Source: a virus. From it: a stretch of DNA of 36,452 nt. Position numbers and translations under genes: made by a program. Below are positions 1-35,069 of this stretch, piece by piece. The stretch spans positions 1 to 36,452 of the IMG/VR virus record IMGVR_UViG_3300045988_087108; one strand, given 5' to 3'. The notes under the pieces are model-generated. The model did not search any database and was not told where the DNA came from. It was given only the letters and a program-made list of their open reading frames with translations. The stretch's first letter is position 1. Every line of letters starts with the position of its first letter.

Positions 1-55
1 CCCCTGACGGTAGGATATTGAACAAGTGCTGTACGTGCGGAGTGGTTCAAGACAT
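1..55. repeat. Terminal redundancy, identical to 36398-36452. Indicates circular closure or an assembler k-mer overlap.
   Basis: Direct comparison: cccctgacggtaggatattgaacaagtgctgtacgtgcggagtggttcaagacat occurs at both window ends. A reading frame runs through the junction. Confidence 0.95.
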
Positions 56-425
56 AACAAAGATGGACGCTGGACACTACATCTCACGTGGAAAGTATGC
101 TACAAGGTGGAGCGAGGATAATGTCCACCCGCAGTGCCTGACAGAAGACAGTAAACTTAGAATGTTCAATGGCACTAATAAAAGCATAGCAGACATTAAA
201 ATCGGAGATAAACTATGGGCTTTTGACAAAGGCACTTTTGAGCCTGAAGTTGCGGTTGTTGAAAATGTCGATAGCTTTATGCCTAGTGAGCTTTACGAGG
301 TTGAAATGGAGAACGGCGACAAGTTCTATGCTACAGGCGACCACAGAGTGGTTGCGAATGGTAAGTGGGAGAACGTAAGTCATATGTTGCAAAGTCAGTC
401 TACGTATGATATTTTTGAACTATGA
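3..425 (+). CDS. ninG: NinG-like recombination endonuclease N-extein (up to nt 134) fused to a split-intein N-fragment (135-422). The true start is ATG 36304, across the circular junction.
   Basis: Extein motifs CCTCG...DAGHYISRG...NVHPQ match the NinG pattern. From Cys at 135 the sequence is CLTEDSKL (intein block A), then FYATGDHRVV (block B, TxxH). Stop at 423-425. Confidence 0.75.
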   Translation, partial: PDGRILNKCCTCGVVQDITKMDAGHYISRGKYATRWSEDNVHPQCLTEDSKLRMFNGTNKSIADIKIGDKLWAFDKGTFEPEVAVVENVDSFMPSELYEVEMENGDKFYATGDHRVVANGKWENVSHMLQSQSTYDIFEL

Positions 426-1013
426 AAAAAGCACTATTTGACAAGACGGAACATACTAAATGGTACATAGCTGAGGACGGCACTGTGTGGAGTTCTAGCA
501 CTTATCATAAAAACGGCAAGTTAAGAAAAAGGTGTGTCCAAAGAAACAAAAGAGGATACTATTATGCAAGAACTACCAACGGTAACTACCAGGTCCATAG
601 ACTTGTAGCTAGTGCTTTTATACCAAATCCAGAAAACAAGCCAGAGGTAAATCATAAAGACTTCAATAAACAAAACAACTCAATCGAAAACCTTGAATGG
701 GTAAGTCATAAAGAAAATATGAGACATGCTATTGATAACGGGAGGATTGCTCTACTGCCAAAAGACAGCGGAACAAATCTAAAATACACCAAAGAACAAT
801 GTCTAACGGTAATATCACTAGTTGAAAGTGGGCTTACATACAAAAAAGCTGGAGAACAAGTTGGAATGCCGTATTCAACAGTAGCTCACTTAATCACAGG
901 GAGGAGGAGAAGTTATGCGAGTAAAATCAATCAAAAAAGTTGAGCCTAGGAGAGTTTACGCAGTGCAAACGTCTACAGGCACATTTATAGCAGATGGATT
1001 AGCTCATCACAAT
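135..1013 (+). mobile_element. Split (fractured) intein with a free-standing HNH homing endonuclease ORF between IntN and IntC.
   Basis: IntN is 135-422 (96 aa) and IntC is 915-1013 (33 aa, ending AHHN before Cys+1). The host frame between them has several stops (423 tga, 468 tag). Removing 135-1013 restores the NinG motif HPQ-CKRCN. Confidence 0.75.
422..943 (+). CDS. HNH homing endonuclease (HNH_3 type with a C-terminal HTH), free-standing between the intein halves.
   Basis: Motif VHRLVASAFIPNPENKPEVNHKDFNKQNNSIENLEWVSHKEN, and a C-terminal HTH-like segment LTYKKAGEQVGMPYSTVAHLI. The ATG overlaps the upstream stop (ATGA at 422-425). The frame differs from the host gene. Confidence 0.85.
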   Translation: MKKALFDKTEHTKWYIAEDGTVWSSSTYHKNGKLRKRCVQRNKRGYYYARTTNGNYQVHRLVASAFIPNPENKPEVNHKDFNKQNNSIENLEWVSHKENMRHAIDNGRIALLPKDSGTNLKYTKEQCLTVISLVESGLTYKKAGEQVGMPYSTVAHLITGRRRSYASKINQKS

Positions 1014-1229
1014 TGCAAACGCTGTAATATTTTTCTCAAGGGAAACTACACCTCATATGCTTTGTTCATGATTAAAACCTACGGTTACTCAAAACTACAA
1101 GAGCTTGACCGACGCTCCAAATCGACGGAGAAAATCTACACATACGAATTGATAGAGAAGATTGAATACTACAAAGCAAAAGTAAAAGGGGTTGAGAGGG
1201 TGCTTCGTGAAACGAAAACCAATGACTAA
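915..1229 (+). CDS. ninG: Split-intein C-fragment (915-1013) fused to the NinG-like C-extein (1014-1226).
   Basis: MRVKSIKKVEPRRVYAVQTSTGTFIADGLAHHN|CKRCNIFLKGNYTSY gives intein blocks F/G ending HN plus Cys+1, followed by the NinG CxxCN...GN..Y motif. It has its own strong SD, GGGAGGAGGAG, at 899-909. Same frame as 3-425. Confidence 0.75.
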   Translation: MRVKSIKKVEPRRVYAVQTSTGTFIADGLAHHNCKRCNIFLKGNYTSYALFMIKTYGYSKLQELDRRSKSTEKIYTYELIEKIEYYKAKVKGVERVLRETKTND

Positions 1230-1617
1230 CCTAGTCGTATGTTCAAACTACAAGATATTCCGCAGATACTGGGAGAGTTTCTACAAGGACAATCCACAGT
1301 TCAAAAGAGGAACGCCAGAGATTGGCTTTATATGGTTGGACAGCTCAAACCGAGATGTCCTCAGCCGATTTTCGCTAAATAGAAAAGCAGACCACATACA
1401 TAGACGGGGTAGAGATGTTAATATCATATTCTTAAAGTGGTATCAGCCGACTAATCCCAAAACGCAGTATTACATCAGGGAGGCTTGGCTGTATGTATAC
1501 TCAGAGTGGAAGACGTTTGGTCGTCCAATCGTGTCGGACAAGTTATTAAATACAGATGGCATTGACGAGCAGTTCAGCGCGTTCACGATAACAGACGCAA
1601 AGAATATGTTATTTTAA
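1222..1617 (+). CDS. Hypothetical protein. The start is uncertain (TTG 1192 or ATG 1222).
   Basis: Long ORF on the coding strand. ATG 1222 overlaps the upstream stop (ATGACTAA). No recognisable motif. Confidence 0.5.
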   Translation: MTNLVVCSNYKIFRRYWESFYKDNPQFKRGTPEIGFIWLDSSNRDVLSRFSLNRKADHIHRRGRDVNIIFLKWYQPTNPKTQYYIREAWLYVYSEWKTFGRPIVSDKLLNTDGIDEQFSAFTITDAKNMLF

Positions 1618-1626
1618 GAATAACCG

Positions 1627-1655
1627 TTGACAACATAAGCACGATAATATAAACT
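1627..1655 (+). promoter_or_regulatory. Sigma-A type promoter P1 of the repeated family (TTGACA-17-TAAACT) with the TAAGCACG spacer element.
   Basis: ttgaca acataagcacgataata taaact. Lies in the intergenic gap upstream of 1662. Confidence 0.6.
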
Positions 1656-1661
1656 AATAAT

Positions 1662-1859
1662 ATGAACAACACAAACACCACCACCTTTATATCAACCAGA
1701 GCTTGGGTTCGTGAGAAGCAACTCAAAGAAAAACAGGCTCTAAAACGCCGTGAGAGGCTCTGTAACGCTGTTTACGTCGCAAAATTGGTATTCACCAGCT
1801 TGGCGATTTTGGTAACGCTGTGGGCTACTATATGGCTTTGGTACTTTGCAACATCGTAA
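1662..1859 (+). CDS. Small membrane protein, hypothetical.
   Basis: ORF with a basic N-terminal half and one C-terminal hydrophobic helix (LVFTSLAILVTLWATIWLWYF). First gene after P1. Confidence 0.5.
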   Translation: MNNTNTTTFISTRAWVREKQLKEKQALKRRERLCNAVYVAKLVFTSLAILVTLWATIWLWYFATS

Positions 1860-1919
1860 TTACAAGATAGAATAGATTTGACAGTAAAACTAAAATTTCG
1901 TGTACGAAAGGAAACCACT

Positions 1920-2561
1920 ATGTCAAAACTTTCAGCAATCAATTCAAATCAAAATGATACGTTCGGTGCAGCGTCTGTATTGTCGTCGATATTCGCGTCG
2001 TTTGTGCTGCTATCCAATATCTTAAGCACTAAAATCATAAACATAGCGGGGTTAGCAAATGACGCAGGCACTTTAATTTACCCATTTACATTTGTAGTCA
2101 AGGATATTATTCAAAAGAAATACGGCAGGGCGGCTGCGCGGCGTGTTATCTGGACTACCTACGGCATTCTAGCATTTGCTTTTCTGTGCCTATGGATTGT
2201 TGGAAAAATCCCACCAGACGCGTCATGGGCTAACCAGGAAGCTTACGACGCAGTATTGACACCTTTTGGTCGTTTAGTGGTTGCAAGTATCATTTCTGGT
2301 ATTATCTCTGAACTTCTCGACACGAGAGTGTTCAGTTACTTGTGGAAGAAAACGCAACAAGTCTGGGTAGCTTTAATCAGCAACGTTGTAGGAATTGCCG
2401 TTGACACTGCTTTATTTGCTCTAATTGCATTTTACGGCGATTTGCCTGTTGAAGCGTTGTGGGGTGTGTTCATCACCAATATGATTATGAAACTAGCACT
2501 ATCGTCGTTAGCTGCGCCAAGTATTTTATTAGTGAAGCCAACAGCGAAAGAGCTTGTATAA
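1920..2561 (+). CDS. yhhQ: YhhQ/DUF165-family queuosine-precursor (preQ0) transporter.
   Basis: Polytopic membrane protein with family-typical LLSNILSTKIINIAG...GTLIYPFTFVVKDIIQKKYGRAAARRVIW. ATG 1920 is preferred over TTG 1878 because of the AAAGGAAA RBS. Confidence 0.8.
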   Translation: MSKLSAINSNQNDTFGAASVLSSIFASFVLLSNILSTKIINIAGLANDAGTLIYPFTFVVKDIIQKKYGRAAARRVIWTTYGILAFAFLCLWIVGKIPPDASWANQEAYDAVLTPFGRLVVASIISGIISELLDTRVFSYLWKKTQQVWVALISNVVGIAVDTALFALIAFYGDLPVEALWGVFITNMIMKLALSSLAAPSILLVKPTAKELV

Positions 2562-2620
2562 ACAAATAAAAAAATAGAACGAAAAGAGAGTTAGAGAATG
2601 AAAGTCCCTCCTTATGACGA

Positions 2621-3448
2621 GTGAGATACTATCTTACAAACAACTTTTCGAACGCGTACCTTGGTGAAGCTTTTTTGCGTGATAAAATAAAAAACTTGCT
2701 TGTATCTTTTGCTTCGGCGACAGGCGCTACTCTCGAACAGAAAATCGAAAATGCTGTAAAAATGTTGAAGATGTTTCGTCCAGACACCAATATAATCATT
2801 GATTCTGGAGCGTTTTCAGCGTGGAATAGTGGATATCGAGTAGACAGAGACGAGCTACTGCATTTTTACAAGGAAATTAAAAAAGAGTTCCCGCACGCAA
2901 ACTTTATAAATCTAGATGTCATTCCTGGCGAAAAAGGGCGCAAACCGACAGAGAAAGAGGCAAACTTAGCATGTCAATTATCCTGGGAGAACTTCCTGTG
3001 GTTCAAACAGAACGGCATAATGACCTTACCAGTGTTTCACGAGGACGACAACTGGGACTATCTTCATATGATGATGAACGAAACTGATTACATCGCAATC
3101 AGCCCAGCAAACGACTCCAGCACTAAGAGACGTATGGTCTGGTTGGATAGAACGTATAGTATCTTGAAAGCCGATTATAAAACTCACGGGCTAGCAGCCA
3201 CTTCTAAAAAACTACTAGAACGCTACCCGTTCTATTCAGTTGACAGTATTAACTGGAAAACAGTTATTATGTTCGCAAACCAACATAGTTTGAACGGTGA
3301 ACGAACACTACCTCGTCATATCGTCTCTCAATTAGCAAAAAACCCTAACACGATAACACAGTTAGTAAACGAGGAAATCACGAAACAGATAAATTTAGAA
3401 AAGTATATCACTAAGCTATGGGCTAGTCGTGGTGTAAAATGGGAGTGA
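2621..3448 (+). CDS. dpdA: DpdA-like / tRNA-guanine transglycosylase (TGT) superfamily protein. Probable DNA 7-deazaguanine transglycosylase.
   Basis: IIIDSGAFS resembles the TGT catalytic TDSGGFQ motif. YSVDSINW resembles the second catalytic-Asp motif (FDCV/FDS). Lies next to yhhQ. Apparent GTG start overlaps the stop of an 8-codon uORF (2598-2624). Confidence 0.65.
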   Translation: MRYYLTNNFSNAYLGEAFLRDKIKNLLVSFASATGATLEQKIENAVKMLKMFRPDTNIIIDSGAFSAWNSGYRVDRDELLHFYKEIKKEFPHANFINLDVIPGEKGRKPTEKEANLACQLSWENFLWFKQNGIMTLPVFHEDDNWDYLHMMMNETDYIAISPANDSSTKRRMVWLDRTYSILKADYKTHGLAATSKKLLERYPFYSVDSINWKTVIMFANQHSLNGERTLPRHIVSQLAKNPNTITQLVNEEITKQINLEKYITKLWASRGVKWE

Positions 3449-3490
3449 GGCAATACTACTATAAACTAAACAAACGAAAGGAAAGAATAG

Positions 3491-4135
3491 ATGAAAACGA
3501 AACTAAAAACGAAACTAGATAAGCAATTTGACCTTAAAAGGGTTATTAAAGTACCGATTGAAAACATAAGAGTAAACACGTGGAACCCAAAAGAACCCAA
3601 TACTCCAGAATACGAAAAAATAAAGAAATCTATAAAGATAAACGGCTTAAAAGGCTTTATAGCTGTAAGACTAAACCCTCAAAACGGAATTGACTATGAA
3701 ATCTTAGACGGACATCAGAGATTTACAGCAGCAAAAGAACTAAACTATAAAGAAGTTTACGTTTACAACGAGGGCGAAATCGACGACAAAACAGCTAAAG
3801 AATACACAATCTGGTGGCAGCAGCAAGTGCCGTTTGACAGAATACAGGAAGCTTCGTTAGTAAGTGAGCTCATAAAAGAATATGGAGACTATGAAAGCCT
3901 GCCATACTCAGACGCTGAAATAGGCGAAATGAAAATGCTATCAGAGTTCTCATTTGAAGAATACGAAGACGCACCAGACACCGAAAAAGACAAAGACTAT
4001 AAGCTTACTTTTGTGTTCCCAGATAAAAACGAAGCGCACATGATAGCTGACTTCTTTAACGTAGCACATAGCAGCAGAGAAGACTTATTGATTAAGCTGG
4101 TGCAGACACAGAACGAGCTACATCACAAACAATAG
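3491..4135 (+). CDS. ParB-like nuclease (ParB/Srx N-terminal) domain protein with an acidic C-terminus.
   Basis: IENIRVNTWNPKEPN...YEILDGHQRFTAAKEL contains the ParB-box DGHQR. Sits just upstream of the terminase genes. Confidence 0.7.
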   Translation: MKTKLKTKLDKQFDLKRVIKVPIENIRVNTWNPKEPNTPEYEKIKKSIKINGLKGFIAVRLNPQNGIDYEILDGHQRFTAAKELNYKEVYVYNEGEIDDKTAKEYTIWWQQQVPFDRIQEASLVSELIKEYGDYESLPYSDAEIGEMKMLSEFSFEEYEDAPDTEKDKDYKLTFVFPDKNEAHMIADFFNVAHSSREDLLIKLVQTQNELHHKQ

Positions 4136-4186
4136 AATAAAGAGAATAAAGCATAAGAATAAATACAAAAGCAAAAGGAAACGAAA

Positions 4187-4570
4187 ATGACAGCAGGACC
4201 TCCAAGAAAATACAACTCTAAAATGCACACAAATATAATAGCTGCTCACCAGCGTGGATTAAACGTAGAAGAAGTGTGTCATCAGGTAGGAATTTCAAAA
4301 GATACGTATTACAGATGGCTAAAAGAATACCCCAAATTAACGGACGATATAAACAGAGCTAAAACATTACTTATCCGTAAAAGCAAAGAGCTGCTCATGA
4401 AAGCTATATCTGACGGCGACATAAGCACGGCTAAATGGTATCTTGAAAGAAAGGCTAGAAGTGAGTTTGCAAGCCAATCTAACCAAACTATACGCCTTAC
4501 TAGCAGCTTGTCTGAACTATCAGATGAAGAGCTGGAGAAGATAGCCAATGCCTCAAGAAACAGTAAATAG
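4187..4570 (+). CDS. terS: Terminase small subunit (HTH type).
   Basis: HTH segment LNVEEVCHQVGISKDTYYRWLKEYP, WYLERK motif, and position immediately 5' of TerL with overlap. Confidence 0.7.
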   Translation: MTAGPPRKYNSKMHTNIIAAHQRGLNVEEVCHQVGISKDTYYRWLKEYPKLTDDINRAKTLLIRKSKELLMKAISDGDISTAKWYLERKARSEFASQSNQTIRLTSSLSELSDEELEKIANASRNSK

Positions 4571-5975
4571 CGCACAAAGTGTACACGGCACAGAGCTAGA
4601 GCGTATTTATGCGCAGATTGAATTGGCAAGGCGTAGAAGCAAAAACGTAAAAGATGGGTTTAAGTGGTTCGTGAACAATGTGTTCAGCGCTAGTTTTCCA
4701 CGGTTCATAACTGGGCAGTTCATAGACGATACGTGCGACCATATGCAGCAGCATGACTGGACAATGGACGTTACTGCCCGAGACCACTTCAAATCCACAA
4801 GATTGTACGCTGAAATCATGTACGACATATTCACAGCAGAGCAAAACGTTGAAATGGTGTATTTCAGCTATTCCATGGACATGTCTAGATATCACCTTAA
4901 AAAAATCAAGCAGATGATAATGGACAACCCGTTCTTTAAGATTGTTACCGATAATAAACGCTTGTCTGAGGGCGTTTTGGACTACACGAATAGTCAAGGA
5001 GCGAACCTCACGTGTACGCCGTCTGGACTATTGATATTTAAGCGCGGTATTCATGCTGACCGAGTGTACATAGACGACCCCCTAAAAGACCCAGAAAACA
5101 AACTAGCCCCGACAGTAATCCATAAAATCAATGACGTTATGAAACTCCAGATATACGCTATGGTGAAGAAAGACGGGAAATGCAGGGTAGTGGGAACGCC
5201 ACAAACGTATTCAGACTTTTTCTTTGACGAGGGACTGAGAGAGAGATTTGACGTGGTTATCCTAGACGCGATGAAAGACGAAGCCAACAGAATAGCTTTA
5301 TTCCCTGAGTGGAAATCCTTTGATGAACTAGAAGCTATCCGAAGAACAATCGGTGAGAAGTCATTTAACCAGGAGTACCGTGCTAAGCCATCATACTCTG
5401 AGGACAGCTATATCACACGAAATGAACTCATGACGTGTATTAACCCATCTTTAATCAATCAAGCGTCTTACAGCGGCTCTCACGACGTTGTAGCAGGGTA
5501 TGACATAGGCAAGCACACACACCCAGCACACTTTTCTGTATTCGAGATGTGGGAAGACAAAGACGGAACGCACTATAAACAATTATTAAGCAAATGGTTA
5601 GACGGTTGGGACTATAAGAAACAGCTGGAATATCTCACCCACGCGATTGAACTGTACAAGATAGATATTCTACGCTACGACGACACCAGAGGAGAGTTTG
5701 AAGGCTTCAAAGAGCAAGGCTTAATTCCAAGAGAAATGAAACCCGTACACTTTAGTATGAAGTCCAAGAACGCCATGGCAGTATCAATGCAGACAGCAGT
5801 TTTAAGTGGTAACCTGGAGCTTATTAACGATACAAGACAGACCGACCAAATCCTAGCCGTAACCTCTGACCTACAAGCCTTTGAATCAGTAGAGGGACAC
5901 GGAGACAGTTTCTGGAGTAATGCACTAGCACTATGGCAAGAGAAACAAAGGGAATACCAGATAAGAGTTTTGTGA
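4548..5975 (+). CDS. terL: Terminase large subunit.
   Basis: Deviant Walker A ARDHFKST, Walker B-like RVYIDDP, a C-terminal nuclease-like region, and synteny (TerS-TerL-portal). Confidence 0.8.
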   Translation: MPQETVNSAQSVHGTELERIYAQIELARRRSKNVKDGFKWFVNNVFSASFPRFITGQFIDDTCDHMQQHDWTMDVTARDHFKSTRLYAEIMYDIFTAEQNVEMVYFSYSMDMSRYHLKKIKQMIMDNPFFKIVTDNKRLSEGVLDYTNSQGANLTCTPSGLLIFKRGIHADRVYIDDPLKDPENKLAPTVIHKINDVMKLQIYAMVKKDGKCRVVGTPQTYSDFFFDEGLRERFDVVILDAMKDEANRIALFPEWKSFDELEAIRRTIGEKSFNQEYRAKPSYSEDSYITRNELMTCINPSLINQASYSGSHDVVAGYDIGKHTHPAHFSVFEMWEDKDGTHYKQLLSKWLDGWDYKKQLEYLTHAIELYKIDILRYDDTRGEFEGFKEQGLIPREMKPVHFSMKSKNAMAVSMQTAVLSGNLELINDTRQTDQILAVTSDLQAFESVEGHGDSFWSNALALWQEKQREYQIRVL

Positions 5976-6030
5976 TTTATAATGAGAGATGAAAGATGAA
6001 AATAAGGGAAAATAAAAAGGGAAACGAACG

Positions 6031-8157
6031 ATGAGAATGCGAAGAGTGATAAAGAACTTAATAGGGGGGACAGCGTTCCAAGACGTACCTCACATTGACC
6101 TGGACAAATACTTGACTGGAGACTTCACCAGTGGAAGCTCACGTATGAACAACTACTCATCAAAACGCTCACAATTGAGAGCTAACATAGGCTGGGTGTT
6201 TGCTGCCAACAGTGCGATATCAGAAGAGTGTGCCTCAGTGGAGTTGAAACTATACAAAAAGAGAAAGAATGGCGACCGAGAGGAAATCTTTGACCACGAA
6301 ATCCTAGACTTACTGAAGAGACCGAACGGCTGGCTCAGAGGCTCACAGTTCTGGAGCTTGTACTATCAATACATGAACCTCACAGGAGAAGCCTACATTC
6401 TGAAAATGCGGAACGGGGAAATCATGGATGTTGCCTCTGACCAGTTACCACATGCCTTACACGTTGTACCGTCTCACCTAGCAAACTTGAAACTGGGGGA
6501 CAGCCGAGAAGACAGTGTGGTGAACTTCCTAGGACACGATATCCCTCTTGATTGCTTTATCCGAGATATTAACCCAGACCCAGACAATCCGTATCAAGGT
6601 AGAAGTATCATCAAAGCTTCAGCCATGGCGTTAGACACGGACTACCGAATGCGAGAGTGGAACAGGGGATTATTCGCCAACGCAGCACGACCATCAGCTG
6701 TACTAGAAGTACCAGACGTAATGACCGATGAAGTCTACCAAAGATTAAGCAAGCAAATGGACGAGGCTCATGCGGGCAGTGATAACGCCTTTAAGCAGAT
6801 TATCCTGGAGGGTGGAGCTAAGTTAGTGCCGTACTCTCTTAACCAGCAAGACCTAGACTTCCTAGAATCACGGAAGTTCTCCAAAGACGAGATATTCGCT
6901 ATGTTCAGAACCTCACCGTCTATCGTAGGGATGACCGAAGATGTGAACCGAGCCAACGCTGAAGCTCAAGACTACACCATGGCAAAGCGCGTGGTGTTGC
7001 CACGAGTGAGAGGACTGAAAGAGTTATTGAACGTTGAGCTGGTGGAGAAATACGACCCAGCACTAGAGATTGACTTTGTGAACCCAATCCCAGAAGACAA
7101 AGCCCAGGAGTTAGCAGAGGACGCTCAAGGAGTGAACAAGTGGTTGACGATTGATGAAGTGAGAGAGAAGCGAGGACTGCCACCGTTAGAGAATGGAGCA
7201 GGAGCGGTTCTGTATCGACCTTTGAACGAAGTGCCGATTGACATGTTGACAGACATAGTAAAACCAGAGACGGAAGCCCCACAAGAGAGCGAAACCCCAA
7301 CAGAGGAGGGTGAGAAGAGCCAAAAAAAAGATGAGGACGAGCTGGAAGCAATAGGCGAGGCGAAATCCGTCTTGTACACCCGACAGGCGAGACAGTACGA
7401 GAACCTCATTCTAAGAGCCTCTAAGGCGATGTTTAACGCACAGAGGGAAGATGTGTTGAAATGGTTGCAGAACGCCCTCAAAACGTATCCTACAGCCTCA
7501 CAGAAGCAAAAAAAGGAAATGCTGGACGACATGGCAGACTGGGAGAAGTACCAATCAGAGTTTGCAGCGACAATGAAACGGATATACGCCATGATAATCG
7601 AGGAGACGGGGAAAGACGCACTGGACGCACTCAATCTGAACGACGATATCCTATTCGACCCAATCAGTCTCAGGATACAGAGGTTCTTGGAGACCGAGCC
7701 GCTGAAAGCCTCCACCACCATCACCGAGGAGACCAAGAAGCAGATACGGGCAGCATTGTCTCAGGGAATGATGAACGGGGACAGTCTCCATGAATTAACT
7801 GAGAAAGTAAATCAGATATTCGGATACGCAGCACAAGACCGAGCCTACAAGATAGCAGAGAGCGAGACCACGAGAAGCCAGGGCTTTGCAGATGTGGAAG
7901 CGTGGAAGCAGTCGGGACAAGTAACCGCCAAACGCTGGTACACATCAAAAGACGAACGAGTGTGCAAGTTTTGCGGGACTATGCACAACAGGACAGTCTC
8001 AATTGACGACAATTTCTATAACAAGGGGGACAGTATGGTAGTGCCGAGAGAGAACAAGAGCGACGCCGTATTGAACTTTAACTATGAGGATATCGCCCAC
8101 CAACCGCTACATGTGAGGTGTCGCTGTGTGCTACTACCCGTGATGAAAGATTTGTAG
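6031..8157 (+). CDS. Portal protein (HK97-family portal, about residues 1-410) fused to a MuF / SPP1 gp7-like head morphogenesis domain (about residues 445-708).
   Basis: Portal-like NPDPDNPYQGRSIIKASAMALDTDYRMREWNRGLFANAARPSAVLEV. Acidic linker ETEAPQESETPTEEGEKSQKKDEDE. MuF-like ESETTRSQGFADVEAWKQSG...WYTSKDERVCKFCGTMHN...CRC. Confidence 0.8.
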   Translation: MRMRRVIKNLIGGTAFQDVPHIDLDKYLTGDFTSGSSRMNNYSSKRSQLRANIGWVFAANSAISEECASVELKLYKKRKNGDREEIFDHEILDLLKRPNGWLRGSQFWSLYYQYMNLTGEAYILKMRNGEIMDVASDQLPHALHVVPSHLANLKLGDSREDSVVNFLGHDIPLDCFIRDINPDPDNPYQGRSIIKASAMALDTDYRMREWNRGLFANAARPSAVLEVPDVMTDEVYQRLSKQMDEAHAGSDNAFKQIILEGGAKLVPYSLNQQDLDFLESRKFSKDEIFAMFRTSPSIVGMTEDVNRANAEAQDYTMAKRVVLPRVRGLKELLNVELVEKYDPALEIDFVNPIPEDKAQELAEDAQGVNKWLTIDEVREKRGLPPLENGAGAVLYRPLNEVPIDMLTDIVKPETEAPQESETPTEEGEKSQKKDEDELEAIGEAKSVLYTRQARQYENLILRASKAMFNAQREDVLKWLQNALKTYPTASQKQKKEMLDDMADWEKYQSEFAATMKRIYAMIIEETGKDALDALNLNDDILFDPISLRIQRFLETEPLKASTTITEETKKQIRAALSQGMMNGDSLHELTEKVNQIFGYAAQDRAYKIAESETTRSQGFADVEAWKQSGQVTAKRWYTSKDERVCKFCGTMHNRTVSIDDNFYNKGDSMVVPRENKSDAVLNFNYEDIAHQPLHVRCRCVLLPVMKDL

Positions 8158-9161: not shown

Positions 9162-10244
9162 ATGGGAATGACCATTAAAGAGCTGGCAGCTAAAAAGGCT
9201 AAAGAAGCAGCAGCAGCAGCCGCAAAAAACGCAGTCGTGGGTAAAGGTGAGGAAACCAAAGAAGCAGACCGCGAGAAAGACTTGAACAGCCGTTTCTACA
9301 AGGCTTTGGCAAACAAAGATATTGCGGAACTGAAAGCTTTGAACGAAGAGTTCGAGAAAGACTACAAAGCTAAAGGACAGAGCGTTGGCACTGACGCAGA
9401 CGGTGGATACCTTGTCCCGACGACTTTGGACACTCAGATTCGTGAGAAGCTCCGTGTATTAAGCCCTATCCGCCAAATCGCGACGGTTCTGTCGAACATG
9501 CCAGCAGACTTAACTCTGCCGCTTGAGGGTACGTTGCCAACCACTTACTGGGTAGGTGAGGGTGTTGCCCCAACGGAGAGCAAGCAGACCTTTGACATTG
9601 CTAAGATGAAAGCTCACAAGCTGGGTGGCTTTGGCAAGTTTACCCACGAGAGCTTGGTTGACACAGCTACTACTCCAAGTCTTCAGAGTTTTGTGGCTGA
9701 CCGCTTCGCACTGAGCTTGGCTATCAATGAAAACGCAGCATTCGTTGGCGGTGATGGTACTAACAAGCCGTTTGGCTTCCGCAGCTCAAAAATTACCCCT
9801 GCTGAACTGGCACAGGCGGGCGCGGCACTGGCTTGGGACGACTTAGTGAAGTTGACCTTGAAAGTGAACGCAGCGTACCGTGCAAACTCAGTCTTCGTCG
9901 TAAGCACTAAGGCACTTGGATTGATTATGACCTTGAAAGACAACACAGGTCGCCCAATCTACTTGCCAAGCTTGACCGAGGGTACACCTGCTACTCTGTT
10001 AGGACGACCAGTATATGAAGTCTCTGAAATCCCAGAGAACTTGGGTACTGGTACTAACGAAACCGAGGTGTGGTTCGGCGACTTTAAGAACTACCTCATC
10101 GGCGACCGTGAAGCTACCCGTATCAAGTTTGGTACGACTGGCACAGACCTTGAGAGCGACAAGATGTCTCTGGTTATCTTCAAGAGAGTGGCTGGTTTAC
10201 CAATCATGAGCGAAGCCTTTGCTAAGTTGACCAAGGTTAAATAG
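9162..10244 (+). CDS. Major capsid protein, HK97 fold, with an N-terminal delta/scaffold-like domain.
   Basis: DADGGYLVPTTLDTQI..., FGKFTHESL, NENAAFVGGDGTNKPFG, GRPVYEVSE. ATG 9162 (RBS AAAGGAAAAG) is preferred over 9090, which overlaps the protease gene. Confidence 0.85.
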   Translation: MGMTIKELAAKKAKEAAAAAAKNAVVGKGEETKEADREKDLNSRFYKALANKDIAELKALNEEFEKDYKAKGQSVGTDADGGYLVPTTLDTQIREKLRVLSPIRQIATVLSNMPADLTLPLEGTLPTTYWVGEGVAPTESKQTFDIAKMKAHKLGGFGKFTHESLVDTATTPSLQSFVADRFALSLAINENAAFVGGDGTNKPFGFRSSKITPAELAQAGAALAWDDLVKLTLKVNAAYRANSVFVVSTKALGLIMTLKDNTGRPIYLPSLTEGTPATLLGRPVYEVSEIPENLGTGTNETEVWFGDFKNYLIGDREATRIKFGTTGTDLESDKMSLVIFKRVAGLPIMSEAFAKLTKVK

Positions 10245-21596: not shown

Positions 21597-23717
21597 ATGA
21601 AGAAATTAGCTTCCAAACTGAAAGAAATCGTTATCAATCGGCTAGATGTATTGATAGTCGCAAGCGTTATCATCATATCATCTGTGTTTTTAATCATAGG
21701 CAAACCCTCAGAGGACGGCAGTATCACACTGGACGGCTCAAAGGCGAAATACTCAAAGTCTACCGAAAAAGCCTTGTGTGAGCTAGCCAAAAAGCGTGAA
21801 ACGGCGATTGCTGGCATGCTTGGTCTAGACGTACCGCAAGATAAAGGCTCAGGTTGCGACCCTGTGGACAAAGAATTAGCGCAGATGGGTTCTGGCGTCT
21901 ACTACAAGACCGACCTATCAAGTCCTGCGGCGTTCGTCAACGCAATGAACGGGCGAGGCTTTAACGAGGGCTACGGTTTCCAGGCTCACTCTAAATATGC
22001 TATAATCAAGATGGCAGACGGTAGCGTTAAACGTGTTACCGACCTAAGAACTGGAGACAAGGTTATGAACTCAAGCAGCATAAAAGTTAATACTGTTAAA
22101 GATTTGTGGACAAGCGATAATAAAATCTATCGCATGCGTACTACAGCTGGCGATTTGATGTTGTCTGGTGAACACCCAGTGCTGGCTGTAAAAATGTCTC
22201 AGCACCAGAGTGACAATCTGCAGAGAGACCTCGCAACAAGCCCAGATAAATACAAAGGTAAATTCGCATGGACTAAAACTGAAGATATCTCAAAGTTTGA
22301 CCGTATAGCTGTTACTATCCCAGCGTCAGGGACACGCTCTAGATTAACCGATTCTGAATTACGCTTGGTGGGTTACTGGTTGGGCGACGGCGATAAAGTC
22401 TACTACCACAAAAACAGCGACGCACATGGCTTTCGTATCACTTCAAATGACGAAAAGAAAGCGTTTATCGACAGTCTTGGTTTAGATGTTACTTGGACGA
22501 GACACTCTAACGGTAAAGCCTGGACTGGTACTATCCGCCCGTCAGATGAGCTACGCAAGGTACTGGATAGTCTTGGCAGGTATTCAAACGATAAGCAATT
22601 CCCATATAACTTCTCGACTGAGCAAAATAAATTAGTACTTGAGGGATATATAAAAGCTGATGGTCATGAAAAGCGAGCCAATAACTATGTAGTCTCATCA
22701 ACTTCTAAAACACTGCTCACGCAAATGCAAGCGATTGCCTGGCAAAACGGCTATAATGCTTCAATTCAGCTTGTGCGGAGAGCTGGTACTGAAACTAACC
22801 TCGGCAAATCAAACTACGATTTATGGCAACTTAATGTGAACACGAAGCCGGTACGTAAGCAGATAACGTTTATATCTGGCGTACCAACAGTATCTGTTGT
22901 TAATAACGATATGCTAGATGAAGAGAAGACGTACTACATTGAAACTGATGGCGACCATACTTACATTGCAGACAATCACCAGGTGCATAACTGTGTGGCG
23001 GGCTTTAAGCAGTTTATGTTCAGCCTCTCAGGACGCGTGGTGGCGACCCGCACTGGTGGAGCGAGTGGATACGCTAACCAGGTCGGCGAAATCCAAGCAC
23101 TCGGCTTTACATGGCACGCTGGGCAGGCTGGTATGAAAGATGGCGACTGGGCAATCTTTGGCGGTGGAACGTACGGACACGTCGCTATGTATTATCAGGG
23201 TAAGTTTTTCGGACAGAACCAGGGCAGTGGCAATATCTATGTTGGTAATGCGTTTAATTTGATGGATTTGGGCGGCTACCGCAACTCGATTATCGGCTAC
23301 TATCGTCCAAATATCTGGAATGGCACTGCTAGCGCGCCAGCCGCTCCAGCAGCCAACTCAAAAACAGTGAACGACCAAGTTGTTGCAGATGTCTTGCGTG
23401 GTGTGTACGGCAGCGGCAATGACCGCGTATCACGGTTGCAAGCCGCTGGCTACAATCCAGCCGAAGTGCAAGCAGCCGTTAATTCACGTGTAGCAAGTAC
23501 TTACCCACGTGTCCAGACACCCGTAGCACCCTCTGTAAGCTCATCAGCGTACGTTGTGAAGCGCGGGGACACTCTTGGCGGTATTGCGCTCAAGAATGGC
23601 TGGTATCGCTCTGTAAACGGCTTATATGGCGACTCAGGCTATGCCCAGGGATTGGCTAATAAAAACGGAATAGCCAACCGCGGACTAATATTTCCTGGAC
23701 AAGTCATACGAAACTAG
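21597..23717 (+). CDS. Endolysin: N-terminal signal-anchor/TM, CHAP amidase/peptidase interrupted by an intein, CW_7 (Cpl-7) repeat, and LysM.
   Basis: After intein removal the sequence reads NEGYGFQ-CVAGFKQFMF (CHAP catalytic Cys motif), then GHVAMYY (His motif). CW_7 is VNDQVVADVLRGVYGSGNDRVSRLQAAGYNPAEVQAAVN. LysM is YVVKRGDTLGGIA...FPGQVI. TM is LDVLIVASVIIISSVFLIIG. Confidence 0.85.
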   Translation: MKKLASKLKEIVINRLDVLIVASVIIISSVFLIIGKPSEDGSITLDGSKAKYSKSTEKALCELAKKRETAIAGMLGLDVPQDKGSGCDPVDKELAQMGSGVYYKTDLSSPAAFVNAMNGRGFNEGYGFQAHSKYAIIKMADGSVKRVTDLRTGDKVMNSSSIKVNTVKDLWTSDNKIYRMRTTAGDLMLSGEHPVLAVKMSQHQSDNLQRDLATSPDKYKGKFAWTKTEDISKFDRIAVTIPASGTRSRLTDSELRLVGYWLGDGDKVYYHKNSDAHGFRITSNDEKKAFIDSLGLDVTWTRHSNGKAWTGTIRPSDELRKVLDSLGRYSNDKQFPYNFSTEQNKLVLEGYIKADGHEKRANNYVVSSTSKTLLTQMQAIAWQNGYNASIQLVRRAGTETNLGKSNYDLWQLNVNTKPVRKQITFISGVPTVSVVNNDMLDEEKTYYIETDGDHTYIADNHQVHNCVAGFKQFMFSLSGRVVATRTGGASGYANQVGEIQALGFTWHAGQAGMKDGDWAIFGGGTYGHVAMYYQGKFFGQNQGSGNIYVGNAFNLMDLGGYRNSIIGYYRPNIWNGTASAPAAPAANSKTVNDQVVADVLRGVYGSGNDRVSRLQAAGYNPAEVQAAVNSRVASTYPRVQTPVAPSVSSSAYVVKRGDTLGGIALKNGWYRSVNGLYGDSGYAQGLANKNGIANRGLIFPGQVIRN
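21984..22991 (+). mobile_element. In-frame 336-aa intein with a LAGLIDADG homing endonuclease. It starts with Ala, and Cys+1 is the CHAP catalytic cysteine.
   Basis: Block A-like AHSKYAIIKMADGSVKRVTDLRTGDKV. Block B LSGEHPVL. LAGLIDADG motifs LVGYWLGDGDK and LVLEGYIKADGHE. Blocks F/G TYYIETDGDHTYIADNHQVHN|C. Confidence 0.8.
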
Positions 23718-33197: not shown

Positions 33198-35069
33198 ATG
33201 GCAAACTTCTCTGGGTTAAATACCCTCTTAAACGAAATTGACAAAACAGTTTCAGACAAAATCGATGATAAAATCAGCAACGAAATACCAGAGCTGAAAA
33301 AGCTGGTAAAAAACGCTGAGAAATCTATCAAAGAAAATCTGCCGATGAAAGTCGAGTACGACGGCAAGCTACATGACGTTAAAGGTCTACGCCACAAAGC
33401 GTTGGATAATCTTATTGTGATGGCTTCGCAGAAAATCCCCGTGCTGTTAGTCGGAATGGCAGGGTGCTTTGCGAAAGGCACAGAAGTGCTTACAGCAAAC
33501 GGATATAAGCCAATTGAGGAAATCACAGAGGGCGAAGTCGTGGCAAGCTTTGATAATGAGCAGATTGTTTATAATAAGGTCGCTCAGACAGCTAGGATTG
33601 ACGACCAGCCAAAACCAATGATACAATTTAGATATGGGAATGAAACAATCAGAGCTACCTATGACCACCCTTTCTTCGACGGAGAAAGATATTATCCGCT
33701 CTATCAGCTTGCCTGGAGAGATATGGAGACAAGCCAAAGGATTCAGCTCAAACTATTATGCGAGCAATATGGGCAGACTTTTGACTACAAAACATCACGG
33801 GGGGTATCATATCGCGATTCTCAAACCTGGGAAAGACAAGGACGGGCATTTACGAACAGCGATGAACGGAAAAACTGTCAAGGTACACAGAGTGGTGGCT
33901 CAGACGTGGATACCCAACCCAGAAAACAAGCCAGAGGTGAATCACAAGAACTCAAACCCTGCCGACAACAGAATAACGAACCTGGAGTGGGTTACACACC
34001 AGGAGAACGTAAAACACGGTTACGAGAATGGAAGAATAAAAGAGTCGTTAGCCAAGGCAGTTGCAAAAACACGAAAGTACGACAGAGACGAGCTGCGAGC
34101 GATACAGAGATGGTGGGACACTCATACTGCTTCAGTGGGGAAAAAGGATTGGAAAGCAAGACACCAATTGTTAGAGCAATTGCAGAAGATGTATCCGCAC
34201 ATAGCGAAAACGACGCTCAAAAATATACGACTAAAGCGAGACATTTACAAGACGTTGTAGTTCTTGAGGCTGAGCCATACTATGCCTTAAGCATTGAGAA
34301 TGTCCATACCTATATTGTCAGTAGAGAAAACCTGCCTGTTCATAATACAGGAAAGACGCACGCTGCTGCTCAAGTCGCTGAGGCACTGGGATTAAGCCAC
34401 TACACAATGTCTGTAGGCGCTCAAACATCTAAATCAGACATAATCGGCTACATGCACGCCTCTGGCGGTTACGTGCCGACGCTCTTCCGAAAAGCATATG
34501 AGGAGGGCGGAGTATTCTTGATGGACGAAATCGACGCTGGCAATGCTAACGTCCTTATCCAGGTCAATGCGGCGCTTTCTAACGGCTTCTGTGCCTTTCC
34601 AGACAAGATGGTGGAACAACACAAAGACTTTGTCTTTATCGCCTCTGCTAACACGTTTGGAAACGGTGCTAACCGTATGTACGTTGGTCGTAACCAGCTT
34701 GACGCTGCTACCCTTGACCGCTTTGCCGTCTTAGTCTGGGACATTGACGAGAAGCTGGAAGACAAAATGACAGAAGCCTACGGAGACACTGGCAAGAACT
34801 GGCTCAAGGTGGTGCGAGAGCTGAGAAAGACTATTGAGAATGACGGTATCCGAGCTTTGGTAACGCCACGTGCTACTATTAAAGGTTGCTCTTTACTAAA
34901 TATCGGGCTTGACTTTGAGACTGTCCTAAACGCTGTGATTGTGGAAAACTTGCCGAGCGACAAGAAGTCTCGCTACCGCGACATGGCTAAGAAAAAATGG
35001 GACGAGACTTCCGAAACTGAGAAAGCACACGAGACAGCCGAGGCGGAAGAAGCTGAGATAATCTGGTAG
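33198..35069 (+). CDS. AAA_5 (MoxR/CobS-like) ATPase precursor with an intein in the Walker A loop.
   Basis: Exteins join as PVLLVGMAG-TGKTHAAAQVAEALGL (Walker A GxxGTGKT). Walker B GGVFLMDEID. Downstream DAATLDRF. Confidence 0.85.
   Translation: MANFSGLNTLLNEIDKTVSDKIDDKISNEIPELKKLVKNAEKSIKENLPMKVEYDGKLHDVKGLRHKALDNLIVMASQKIPVLLVGMAGCFAKGTEVLTANGYKPIEEITEGEVVASFDNEQIVYNKVAQTARIDDQPKPMIQFRYGNETIRATYDHPFFDGERYYPLYQLAWRDMETSQRIQLKLLCEQYGQTFDYKTSRGVSYRDSQTWERQGRAFTNSDERKNCQGTQSGGSDVDTQPRKQARGESQELKPCRQQNNEPGVGYTPGERKTRLREWKNKRVVSQGSCKNTKVRQRRAASDTEMVGHSYCFSGEKGLESKTPIVRAIAEDVSAHSENDAQKYTTKARHLQDVVVLEAEPYYALSIENVHTYIVSRENLPVHNTGKTHAAAQVAEALGLSHYTMSVGAQTSKSDIIGYMHASGGYVPTLFRKAYEEGGVFLMDEIDAGNANVLIQVNAALSNGFCAFPDKMVEQHKDFVFIASANTFGNGANRMYVGRNQLDAATLDRFAVLVWDIDEKLEDKMTEAYGDTGKNWLKVVRELRKTIENDGIRALVTPRATIKGCSLLNIGLDFETVLNAVIVENLPSDKKSRYRDMAKKKWDETSETEKAHETAEAEEAEIIW
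33465..34346 (+). mobile_element. 294-aa contiguous intein (Cys1 ... His-Asn, Thr+1). Its central linker is overprinted by an out-of-frame HNH endonuclease ORF.
   Basis: Block A CFAKGTEVLTANG. Block B IRATYDHPFF. Blocks F/G DVVVLEAEPYYALSIENVHTYIVSRENLPVHN|T. The roughly 190 codons between them are polar and low-complexity, and have no stop in the host frame. Confidence 0.8.
33634..34260 (+). CDS. HNH homing endonuclease (NUMOD4 + HNH_3) encoded in an alternative frame inside the intein. The start codon is uncertain.
   Basis: EIWRQAKGFSSNYYASNMGRLL (NUMOD4-like). VHRVVAQTWIPNPENKPEVNHKNSNPADNRITNLEWVTHQEN is paralogous to 422-943. Its stop at 34258-34260 coincides with the start of the intein C-terminal blocks. 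Confidence 0.75.
   Translation: MGMKQSELPMTTLSSTEKDIIRSISLPGEIWRQAKGFSSNYYASNMGRLLTTKHHGGYHIAILKPGKDKDGHLRTAMNGKTVKVHRVVAQTWIPNPENKPEVNHKNSNPADNRITNLEWVTHQENVKHGYENGRIKESLAKAVAKTRKYDRDELRAIQRWWDTHTASVGKKDWKARHQLLEQLQKMYPHIAKTTLKNIRLKRDIYKTL

Follow-up and report, generated by a model that had tools for sequence, protein, structure and literature searches.

A candidate salvage-dependent 7-deazaguanine DNA-modification module of three genes in the genome of an uncultured siphovirus

The viral DNA analyzed here, IMG/VR record IMGVR_UViG_3300045988_087108 over its full 36,452 nucleotides (the window), is the complete genome of an uncultured siphovirus that carries a transporter gene, yhhQ, a transglycosylase gene, dpdA, and a ParB-like gene, all co-oriented and just upstream of the packaging genes, and no gene for the synthesis of a 7-deazaguanine base. 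We read these three genes as a reduced, salvage-dependent module for modifying DNA with 7-deazaguanine and give this reading a probability of roughly 60%. The module comprises:

1920 to 2561, + strand, ATG start: QPTR/YhhQ (COG1738, Vut_1) queuosine-precursor transporter of 213 amino acids, assigned by family hidden Markov models (HMMs)
2621 to 3448, + strand, GTG start: DpdA1-type DNA-guanine transglycosylase of 275 amino acids, with an SPAND pocket motif at residues 161 to 165
3491 to 4135, + strand: ParB/Noc-fold protein of 214 amino acids with a ParB_N domain and the nucleotide-binding-type motifs NxWNPK and DGHQR, a candidate DpdB-like partner

A reading of the window made from the sequence alone (the sequence-only reading) had proposed that a YhhQ homolog is immediately followed by a 275-amino-acid protein of the tRNA-guanine transglycosylase (TGT) superfamily, and both genes lie where it placed them, with their families confirmed. 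For the transporter, this rests on HMMs, as the protein scores above cutoff with both Pfam PF02592 (Vut_1; E=1.6e-35, 123 bits, cutoff 27.2) and the NCBIfam equivalog TIGR00697, 'queuosine precursor transporter' (112 bits, cutoff 51). Its identity to E. coli YhhQ is 27% (E=2e-12), and it shows roughly six hydrophobic spans, as found in the polytopic inner-membrane QPTR proteins of approximately 200 to 230 amino acids, with Kyte-Doolittle spans at about residues 13 to 46, 75 to 101, 111 to 137, 147 to 177, and 187 to 206. Compared with a syntenic phage (L083), the transporter has the highest conservation of all proteins of the window at 98% identity, whereas DpdA is 65% identical and most others fall between 70 and 95%; compared with a second syntenic phage (L085), its 77% identity is second only to that of the small terminase subunit, TerS (78%), with DpdA at 51%. 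The gene is thus under strong constraint and no decaying passenger. The contrast between DpdA and YhhQ extends over positions 1920 to 3448 of the window, 9299 to 10819 of L083, and 7256 to 8801 of L085. From these alignments, DpdA looks like a local divergence or recombination hotspot, and its divergence may reflect diversified DNA target specificity.

The resemblance of the second protein to phage DpdA enzymes, also suggested by the sequence-only reading, is borne out by homology and by a full catalytic set. It matches phrog_887, 'queuine tRNA-ribosyltransferase', at 5e-46, and among cultured phages, its best match is DpdA1 of phiSM (34% identity over 250 amino acids, 1e-37), with further matches to the DpdA proteins of Dp-1 (35% identity, 2e-28) and CAjan (26% identity, 6e-19). 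AlphaFold2, given 43 homologs, produced a model with a predicted local distance difference test score (pLDDT) of 92.5, and all of the 50 best Foldseek matches of this model in the PDB are TGTs (probability 1.0, TMq 0.57 to 0.71), so that a non-TGT fold, which would have spoken against the proposal, is not what the prediction returns. Searches of the PDB with phmmer and with a profile of the 43 homologs produced only noise and no TGT, and hhalign against E. coli TGT gave a probability of 1.8%, although DSGAF was aligned to DSGGF; the TGT fold, as predicted, is therefore settled by structure prediction and Foldseek only. None of the PADLOC defense models, which include the bacterial Dpd proteins, matched DpdA.

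The two proposed catalytic-aspartate motifs, IDSGAFS (residues 60 to 66) and SVDS (residues 206 to 209), are present, and D61 and D208 are invariant in the 43 homologs, as are G63, A64, D99, H140, S161, P162, N164, H189, and S206, with F65 nearly so. In Salmonella DpdA, Asp95 acts as general acid/base and Asp256 as nucleophile, both essential by mutagenesis, while Asp130 and His181 bind the base and Phe99 stacks on it (PMC10164549). By spacing and motifs, D61, F65, D99, H140, and D208 of the window protein correspond to D95, F99, D130, H181, and D256 of the bacterial enzyme, and they sit in motifs common with CAjan DpdA (DSGAFS, LPxFH, and YSxDS); the alignments to the phiSM and Dp-1 proteins agree with this assignment. 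Since the full catalytic set is reproduced, the protein looks catalytically competent. The public JGI gene call (P0002) starts the gene at a TTG at 2675, giving 257 amino acids, but the 18 additional N-terminal residues (2621 to 2675) are conserved out to phiSM and make up beta-strand 1 of the modeled barrel, and the start codon is the GTG at 2621.

Because the fold of DpdA is that of a tRNA-modifying enzyme, it must be asked whether the pair acts on RNA, altering queuosine-type tRNA modification to tune translation or otherwise manipulate metabolism, rather than on DNA. Phages with Que genes and no DpdA may indeed boost queuosine in tRNA (Hutinet et al. 2019, PMC6884629). However, the window protein is a minimal barrel of 275 amino acids with a single cysteine, and it therefore lacks the zinc subdomain of the tRNA TGTs; it also has no extra tRNA-binding domains. 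It is homologous to DpdA1 enzymes that were genetically shown to modify DNA (those of CAjan and 9g), its position beside the packaging genes and a gene for a ParB-fold protein of DNA-binding type is conserved, and no tRNA gene was found in the phage genome. An action on RNA thus seems quite improbable.

The key negative claim, the absence of a biosynthetic pathway, holds, given a complete genome. An exact direct repeat of 55 bp is present at both termini of the window, from which we conclude that the 36.4-kb genome is complete and circularly permuted, and a NinG gene reads across the genome junction. Pfam scans took in all + strand open reading frames (ORFs) of at least 100 amino acids and detected no enzyme of the Que pathway or of base tailoring. 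Six-frame tblastn of the whole window, with references for FolE, QueD, QueE, QueC, QueF, the DpdM region, and others from CAjan, phiSM, MS1, and L084, found no FolE, QueD, QueE, QueC, or QueF (best E, approximately 0.1), and the tailoring enzymes DpdM, DpdN, DpdL, ArcS, and Gat-QueC are likewise absent from the window. The statement of the sequence-only reading that the genome lacks FolE, QueD, QueE, and QueC is thus upheld. Genes for the synthesis of preQ0 or preQ1 are typical of, but not required in, the DpdA1 family, and a complete genome with no 7-deazaguanine biosynthesis or tailoring gene implies that the base must come to the phage from elsewhere, by import or scavenging, as had been proposed.

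Comparison with related loci indicates what has taken the place of the pathway. A DpdA profile search retrieved 80 viral loci, and neighbor counts were made over 65 non-redundant ones; the contexts of the closer relatives were obtained through exact-protein look-ups, with the contigs of relatives fetched in part. The relatives that matter most here, with the identity of their DpdA to that of the window, are:

L083 (65%): syntenic phage of approximately 36.6 kb with the order YhhQ-DpdA, the contig stopping after DpdA
L085 (51%): syntenic phage of approximately 36.6 kb with the order YhhQ-DpdA-ParB-TerS-TerL
L086, L087, and L088 (51 to 59%): QueD-QueE-QueC-FolE-QueF-DpdA-ParB, with the terminase and portal genes after them
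L084 (56%): an unrelated YhhQ (29%) and QueE-QueD-FolE-QueC-QueF-(261-amino-acid protein of unassigned function)-DpdA-ParB

In the lineage of the window (L001, L083, and L085), there is only the transporter, in the slot occupied by the Que and QueF genes of these cousins, while L084 holds the transporter as well as the pathway. These layouts support the view that, in the lineage of the window, the importer stands in for the synthesis pathway. Across the 65 loci, the gene directly upstream of dpdA encodes QueF in 43, FolE in 8, Vut_1 in 4, and QueC in 3. The four loci with Vut_1 are the window, L083, L085, and L007, and no Que gene was found in the fetched flanks of any of them. L007 has a tightly packed Vut_1-DpdA-ParB_N arrangement, with a DpdA 36% and a YhhQ 27% identical to those of the window, and in L100, a contig that was binned with an Aenigmatarchaeota metagenome-assembled genome (MAG) and bears viral replication genes, Vut_1 overlaps DpdA by 8 nt and there are no Que genes. 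Transporter-only lineages are scattered among Que-encoding ones in a neighbor-joining tree, and the reduced layout therefore seems to have arisen more than once. Descent of the window transporter from that of the Que-complete cousin L084 was considered and rejected, as the two are only 29% identical, and it would follow that transporters were acquired more than once as well.

The clusters of the cousins also contain genes of unassigned function, at 7661 to 8446 in L084, 6330 to 6923 in L086, and 5763 to 6359 in L088. That of L084 encodes the 261-amino-acid protein between QueF and DpdA, and those of L086 and L088 encode a protein of approximately 197 amino acids between QueC and FolE. These proteins have no Pfam match and are candidates for extra pathway or tailoring components.

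The DpdA sequence itself carries a pointer to the base that would be inserted. In bacterial DpdA and TGT structures, the determinant for the 7-substituent lies in the loop after the GG of the 'GGhsbb' motif (PMC10164549). The pocket segment reads ISPANDS in the window and IGGMVGR in CAjan, and S161, P162, and N164 are invariant in the clade of the window. In a test that took in viral loci showing any biosynthesis gene, QueF was present in 53 of 54 loci with an S[PA]xND-type DpdA and in 1 of 11 with other motifs (Fisher p=7e-10, which ignores shared ancestry); in an independent set of genome contigs, the corresponding counts were 14/14 with SPxND and 1/10 with other motifs. Phages with analyzed DNA follow the same pattern. 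In the DNA of Dp-1, which has QueF and a DpdA pocket reading ISPANDST, the deoxynucleoside dPreQ1 amounts to 1.7% of G and dPreQ0 is absent (PMC6884629), and the DNA of phiSM, with QueF and an ISPANDTH pocket, contains dPreQ1 at approximately 1.1% of G plus mdPreQ1 (PMC10516641). CAjan, by comparison, has no QueF and a GGMVG pocket, and its DNA carries dPreQ0 (PMC6884629, PMC10516641). MS1, a sister of Dp-1, has no QueF in its cluster and a pocket reading LGGLVGVH; its DpdA aligns with that of Dp-1 without gaps at 47% identity, and the pocket segment differs along with the presence of QueF. VH7D DpdA2, shown to insert preQ1, was not used as an anchor, its gene not having been located near the VH7D QueF. 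Given this link of the SPxND pocket class to QueF, and its occurrence in phages with dPreQ1, the inserted base is most likely preQ1 (7-aminomethyl-7-deazaguanine) and not preQ0.

The third gene probably belongs to the module and is more than a neighbor. As the sequence-only reading had described, a ParB-like gene at 3491 to 4135 lies just ahead of the packaging genes, Pfam and PHROG matches giving the order TerS, large terminase subunit (TerL), and portal after it. Pfam ParB_N matches its product at 4e-7. In a family of 35 homologs, NxWNPK, VR, DGxQR, and TIWWQQQVPF are invariant, and the family profile matches the N domains of the Noc/ParB/Spo0J CTPases at 5e-10, with NTWNPK aligned to box I (NxxxP[KR], here NRFQPR) and DGHQRFTA to box II (GxxR or DGxQR, here GERRWRA). 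The best Foldseek matches of its model (pLDDT 79) are ParB, Noc, and KorB (probability 1.0). ParB_N is the commonest family directly downstream of DpdA, at 19 of the 65 non-redundant loci, while other families reach at most 2 of 65 each, overlapping GmrSD_N matches excepted. In phiSM, L018, and L072, the ParB-like gene lies inside the Que cluster and away from the terminase. In bacteria, DpdA depends on DpdB, an ATPase of the ParB superfamily that has a DGQQR motif (PMC10164549), and a DpdB-like role was suggested in passing for mycobacteriophage CRB2 (PMC6392294). By analogy, the ParB-like protein may act as DpdB does in bacteria. When produced on its own in E. coli, DpdA1 of phiSM showed no activity (PMC10516641), and we hypothesize that a missing ParB-like partner would explain this.

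Taken together, these elements suggest the following mechanism. YhhQ would be made in the infected cell and would import a free queuosine-precursor base across the inner membrane, either preQ1 directly or preQ0 that is then reduced by the QueF of the host. The DpdA1-type enzyme would excise guanine from double-stranded phage DNA after replication and insert the 7-deazaguanine base, through a covalent Asp208-DNA intermediate and with Asp61 as general acid/base, and the ParB-fold DGxQR protein would probably help DpdA on DNA, as DpdB helps the bacterial enzyme. The expected level is approximately 1% of G at specific motifs, which would confer protection against restriction enzymes. At 1.1% of the 16,358 G of the genome, dPreQ1 would amount to approximately 180 bases per genome and approximately 18,000 per burst of 100. 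This is of the same order as the demand of a cell for queuosine in tRNA, and salvage could plausibly supply it. Replacement of 30 to 100% of G, on the other hand, would need approximately 0.8 to 2.7 mM cell-equivalents, which salvage could not provide.

Several points weigh against this reading, and a first group concerns the supply of the base. In CAjan, modification was unaffected by deletion of yhhQ (PMC7544227), although this phage synthesizes preQ0 itself. Among phages that have DpdA and no synthesis genes, Salmonella phage 7-11 has only 50 dPreQ0 per 10^6 nt, and Mycobacterium phage Orion has no modification (PMC6884629). An alternative arrangement would be that DpdA draws on preQ1 or preQ0 synthesized by the host for tRNA queuosine, with the transporter auxiliary or dispensable. 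In folE and queC mutants of CAjan, incorporation from host metabolism does persist, at an approximately 12-fold lower level (PMC7544227), and in many prophage loci of bacterial genomes (L093, L105 to L108, and L111 to L117), DpdA is accompanied by no Que gene and no transporter within 10 kb. However, supply by the host would not readily account for a transporter that is the most conserved gene in comparison with L083 and occupies the exact slot of the lost Que and QueF genes, nor for the independent recurrence of a transporter-DpdA pair without Que genes in L007 and L100, and the measured phages that were host-fed and had only DpdA showed negligible modification (PMC6884629). We consider this host-fed arrangement unlikely, while giving it more credence than any of the other alternatives discussed here. 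Both routes of supply could also operate together, and import from the medium and the preQ1/preQ0 pool of the host itself are inseparable as base sources with the present data.

A second group of points concerns the identity of the base. Although the transporter belongs to the QPTR family, its substrate does not appear to be inferable by orthology or sequence. It scores 57.5 bits with NF008406, the E. coli-type preQ0/preQ1 subtype, under the cutoff of 252, and its nearest cellular homologs are approximately 36 to 40% identical. QPTR members vary in specificity, the E. coli protein transporting both preQ0 and preQ1 (PMC11130926) and that of Chlamydia queuine only. The pocket-motif rule is, as derived from these sequences, correlative and uncorrected for shared ancestry, and DpdA subfamilies have switched substrate several times (PMC10516641). 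The transporter might thus import queuine, another 7-deazapurine, or an unrelated 'vitamin', with the SPxND DpdA inserting whatever compound is imported. Against this, the SPxND class is linked to QueF, the sole known product of which is preQ1, both of the analyzed phages with SPAND contain dPreQ1, and the window has no tailoring enzymes, so we regard a different base as improbable. The remaining points concern the other two proteins. Pfam PF01702 (TGT) does not match DpdA. The ParB-like protein matched no PADLOC defense model, bacterial Dpd included, for which reason we do not call it DpdB, and it has a weak match to MTase_II (0.004); its gene adjoins that of TerS, and a role in packaging is possible.

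The idea behind the salvage reading is already published, and the window would be a clean, well-supported example of it rather than a new principle. Hutinet et al. (2019) listed 76 phages with DpdA only, proposed supply by the host or uptake, and noted YhhQ in some phages (PMC6884629). Those DpdA-only phages likewise have DpdA without genes for preQ0 or G+ synthesis, but the tested ones have little or no modification, whereas the window has a transporter replacing the Que and QueF genes and an enzyme of the preQ1 type. As far as the searched literature goes, what is new here is an intact minimal cassette with evidence that an importer replaced the pathway, a pocket signature predicting preQ1, and a statistical link to a ParB-fold partner.

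Among characterized systems, Streptococcus phage Dp-1 shares with the window the ISPANDS(S/T)TK pocket segment and a queuosine-precursor transporter gene immediately upstream of dpdA. Its cluster (QueF-QueC-QueD-QueE-FolE-QueT-DpdA) differs in encoding the full preQ1 pathway, in that its transporter is the unrelated ECF-type QueT (ECF, energy-coupling factor), and in the lack of a ParB-like gene after dpdA. Cellulophaga phage phiSM is similar to the window in its SPAND pocket and in the ParB-like gene directly after dpdA, but it has FolE, QueC, QueD, QueE, QueF, and the methyltransferase DpdM and no transporter. Escherichia phage CAjan (Seuratvirus) and Streptococcus virus MS1, like the window, have a YhhQ/Vut_1 gene within the DpdA cluster, which in MS1 is directly upstream of dpdA and overlaps it; unlike the window, both have a full preQ0 pathway and a GG-type DpdA, and CAjan inserts preQ0 and can dispense with yhhQ (PMC7544227). 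The sister pneumococcal phages Dp-1 (L135, 3306 to 4728) and MS1 (L133, 2749 to 4352) carry non-homologous transporters, QueT and Vut_1, in the same slot. The bacterial Dpd system of Salmonella Montevideo resembles the window in combining a TGT-fold transglycosylase with a ParB-superfamily DGxQR protein and in its Asp/Asp/His/Asp set, but its DpdB is about twice the size of the ParB-like protein, its DpdA is specific for preQ0 and has a GGMVPL pocket, and the DpdC-K restriction part is absent from the window.

In the cultured C. difficile phage CDKM15, an intact QPTR gene lies beside a DpdA-derived ORF just upstream of TerS, as in the window, and no Que genes are annotated. The order differs, with DpdA preceding the transporter, and DpdA is reduced to a 78-amino-acid C-terminal remnant; at this locus (L132, 6744 to 7615), the ORF annotated as 'queuine tRNA-ribosyltransferase' keeps FYSVDSSSW, and the stretch upstream of it is full of stop codons. 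It appears to be a decayed version of a transporter-DpdA pair, which raises the question of whether the module of the window could itself be a non-functional remnant left by the loss of a Que operon, all the more as DpdA is among the less conserved genes of this phage group. This is very improbable, however, as both ORFs are full length, the catalytic and family-invariant residues are intact, the DpdA model is confident, the transporter is strongly conserved over diverged relatives (98% and 77%), and an overlap between the dpdA start and a short upstream ORF (uORF) is maintained.

Should the salvage reading be correct, this would be the first well-defined case in which a phage protects its DNA from restriction by means of a base obtained through scavenging only, and the fitness of the phage would depend on the queuosine precursors that its environment or host has to offer. 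A more general form of the proposal, which we put forward as tentative and somewhat doubtful, is that the SPxND DpdA1 enzymes are a subclass of dedicated preQ1 inserters with an obligatory ParB-fold DGxQR partner, and that in the lineage of the window an importer has replaced the five-gene pathway, so that the anti-restriction state would depend on a micronutrient of the community or host. In practical terms, a minimal cassette of importer, transglycosylase, and ParB-like helper might, once transferred to E. coli, insert preQ1 into the DNA of fed cells, the SPxND and GGxVG signatures might allow insertion of preQ1 or preQ0 to be predicted by sequence alone, and the absence of the ParB-like partner is a candidate reason for the heterologous failure of some DpdA1 enzymes.

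Around and between the genes of the module, three further elements were noted:

1627 to 1655, + strand: candidate sigma-70-like promoter, TTGACA-17-TAAACT, in the gap after the ORF at 1192 to 1617; 10/12 matches, the best in positions 1 to 6000
1662 to 1859, + strand: ORF of 65 amino acids lying directly upstream of yhhQ and kept in relatives; the C-terminal helix of its product is hydrophobic
2599 to 2625, + strand: eight-codon uORF, MKVPPYDE*, the TGA of which overlaps the GTG of dpdA (GTGA)

It is uncertain whether the promoter candidate and the 65-amino-acid ORF belong to the module. The sequence-only reading had described the module as the first transcription unit after a promoter P1, possibly the site at 1627 to 1655, and this finds no support, as promoter-like sites are no more numerous than in shuffled sequence (11 observed, 12.2 expected); no terminator-like site was found on the + strand between 1327 and 6000. 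The 65-amino-acid ORF is found at the same position in L001 (95%) and L083 (80%); it was not found in L085, and it has no Pfam or PHROG match. Neither a preQ1 riboswitch nor any other Rfam family was detected upstream of yhhQ. The ATG of yhhQ at 1920 is preceded by an AGGA Shine-Dalgarno sequence, and in general, a Shine-Dalgarno sequence (AAAGGAAA) is present before yhhQ, parB, and terS, while dpdA has none. A uORF of 7 to 8 codons with its stop overlapping the dpdA start (GTGA or ATGA) is also present in L001 (approximately 4700 to 4727) and L083 (approximately 9980 to 10003), whereas dpdA of L085 has a Shine-Dalgarno sequence and a GTG instead, with a terminator-like hairpin in the yhhQ-dpdA spacer. 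Since dpdA lacks a Shine-Dalgarno sequence of its own and the overlap of uORF stop and dpdA start is conserved, translation of dpdA is probably coupled to that of the uORF.

All recognizable genes of the genome lie on the + strand, and the structural set, with portal plus MuF, S78 protease, a capsid of the HK97 type, tail tube, and Dit, resembles that of siphoviruses. No near-identical phage was found in the search. TerL (4548 to 5975) had no tblastn match at E<=1e-5 among 50,697 GenBank phage records and no Pfam match, and its PHROG matches were weak; by these comparisons, the phage appears to be a member of a lineage without a cultured relative. Pointers to the host are few. The closest cellular homologs of YhhQ are proteins from Chloroflexi MAGs, and a scan of a genome collection found nothing above 40% identity, with matches across very diverse taxa. 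The lysin-like protein of 706 amino acids (21597 to 23717) has C-terminal CW_7 and LysM wall-binding domains with weak similarity to Microbacterium phage lysins, which hints, as a weak pointer, at a Gram-positive host. A second weak pointer in the same direction, on which we do not build, is that the QueF of a cousin is nearest to the QueFs of Firmicutes phages.

The genome also contains intein-like insertions in genes outside the module. The NinG/Rap gene that spans the junction (36.33 kb to the end, then 18 to 1229) is interrupted, with the following parts:

18 to 425: N-terminal part of NinG plus a Hint domain
422 to 943: free-standing HNH_3 endonuclease ORF, in a frame different from that of NinG
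915 to 1229: C-terminal part of NinG, in the frame of the N-terminal part

This arrangement suggests insertion of a homing endonuclease into an intein, as in a 'fractured gene' of the split-intein type; in L001 and L083, NinG and Hint are present and the HNH ORF is not. An AAA ATPase of 623 amino acids (33198 to 35069) has an Intein_splicing match over residues 98 to 383, and its homologs in L083 (329 amino acids) and L085 (407 amino acids) are without the intein. The lysin-like protein has an internal LAGLIDADG_3 match at residues 344 to 397, which, judging from the domain match, would be the third insertion of the intein/homing-endonuclease type within this 36-kb genome.

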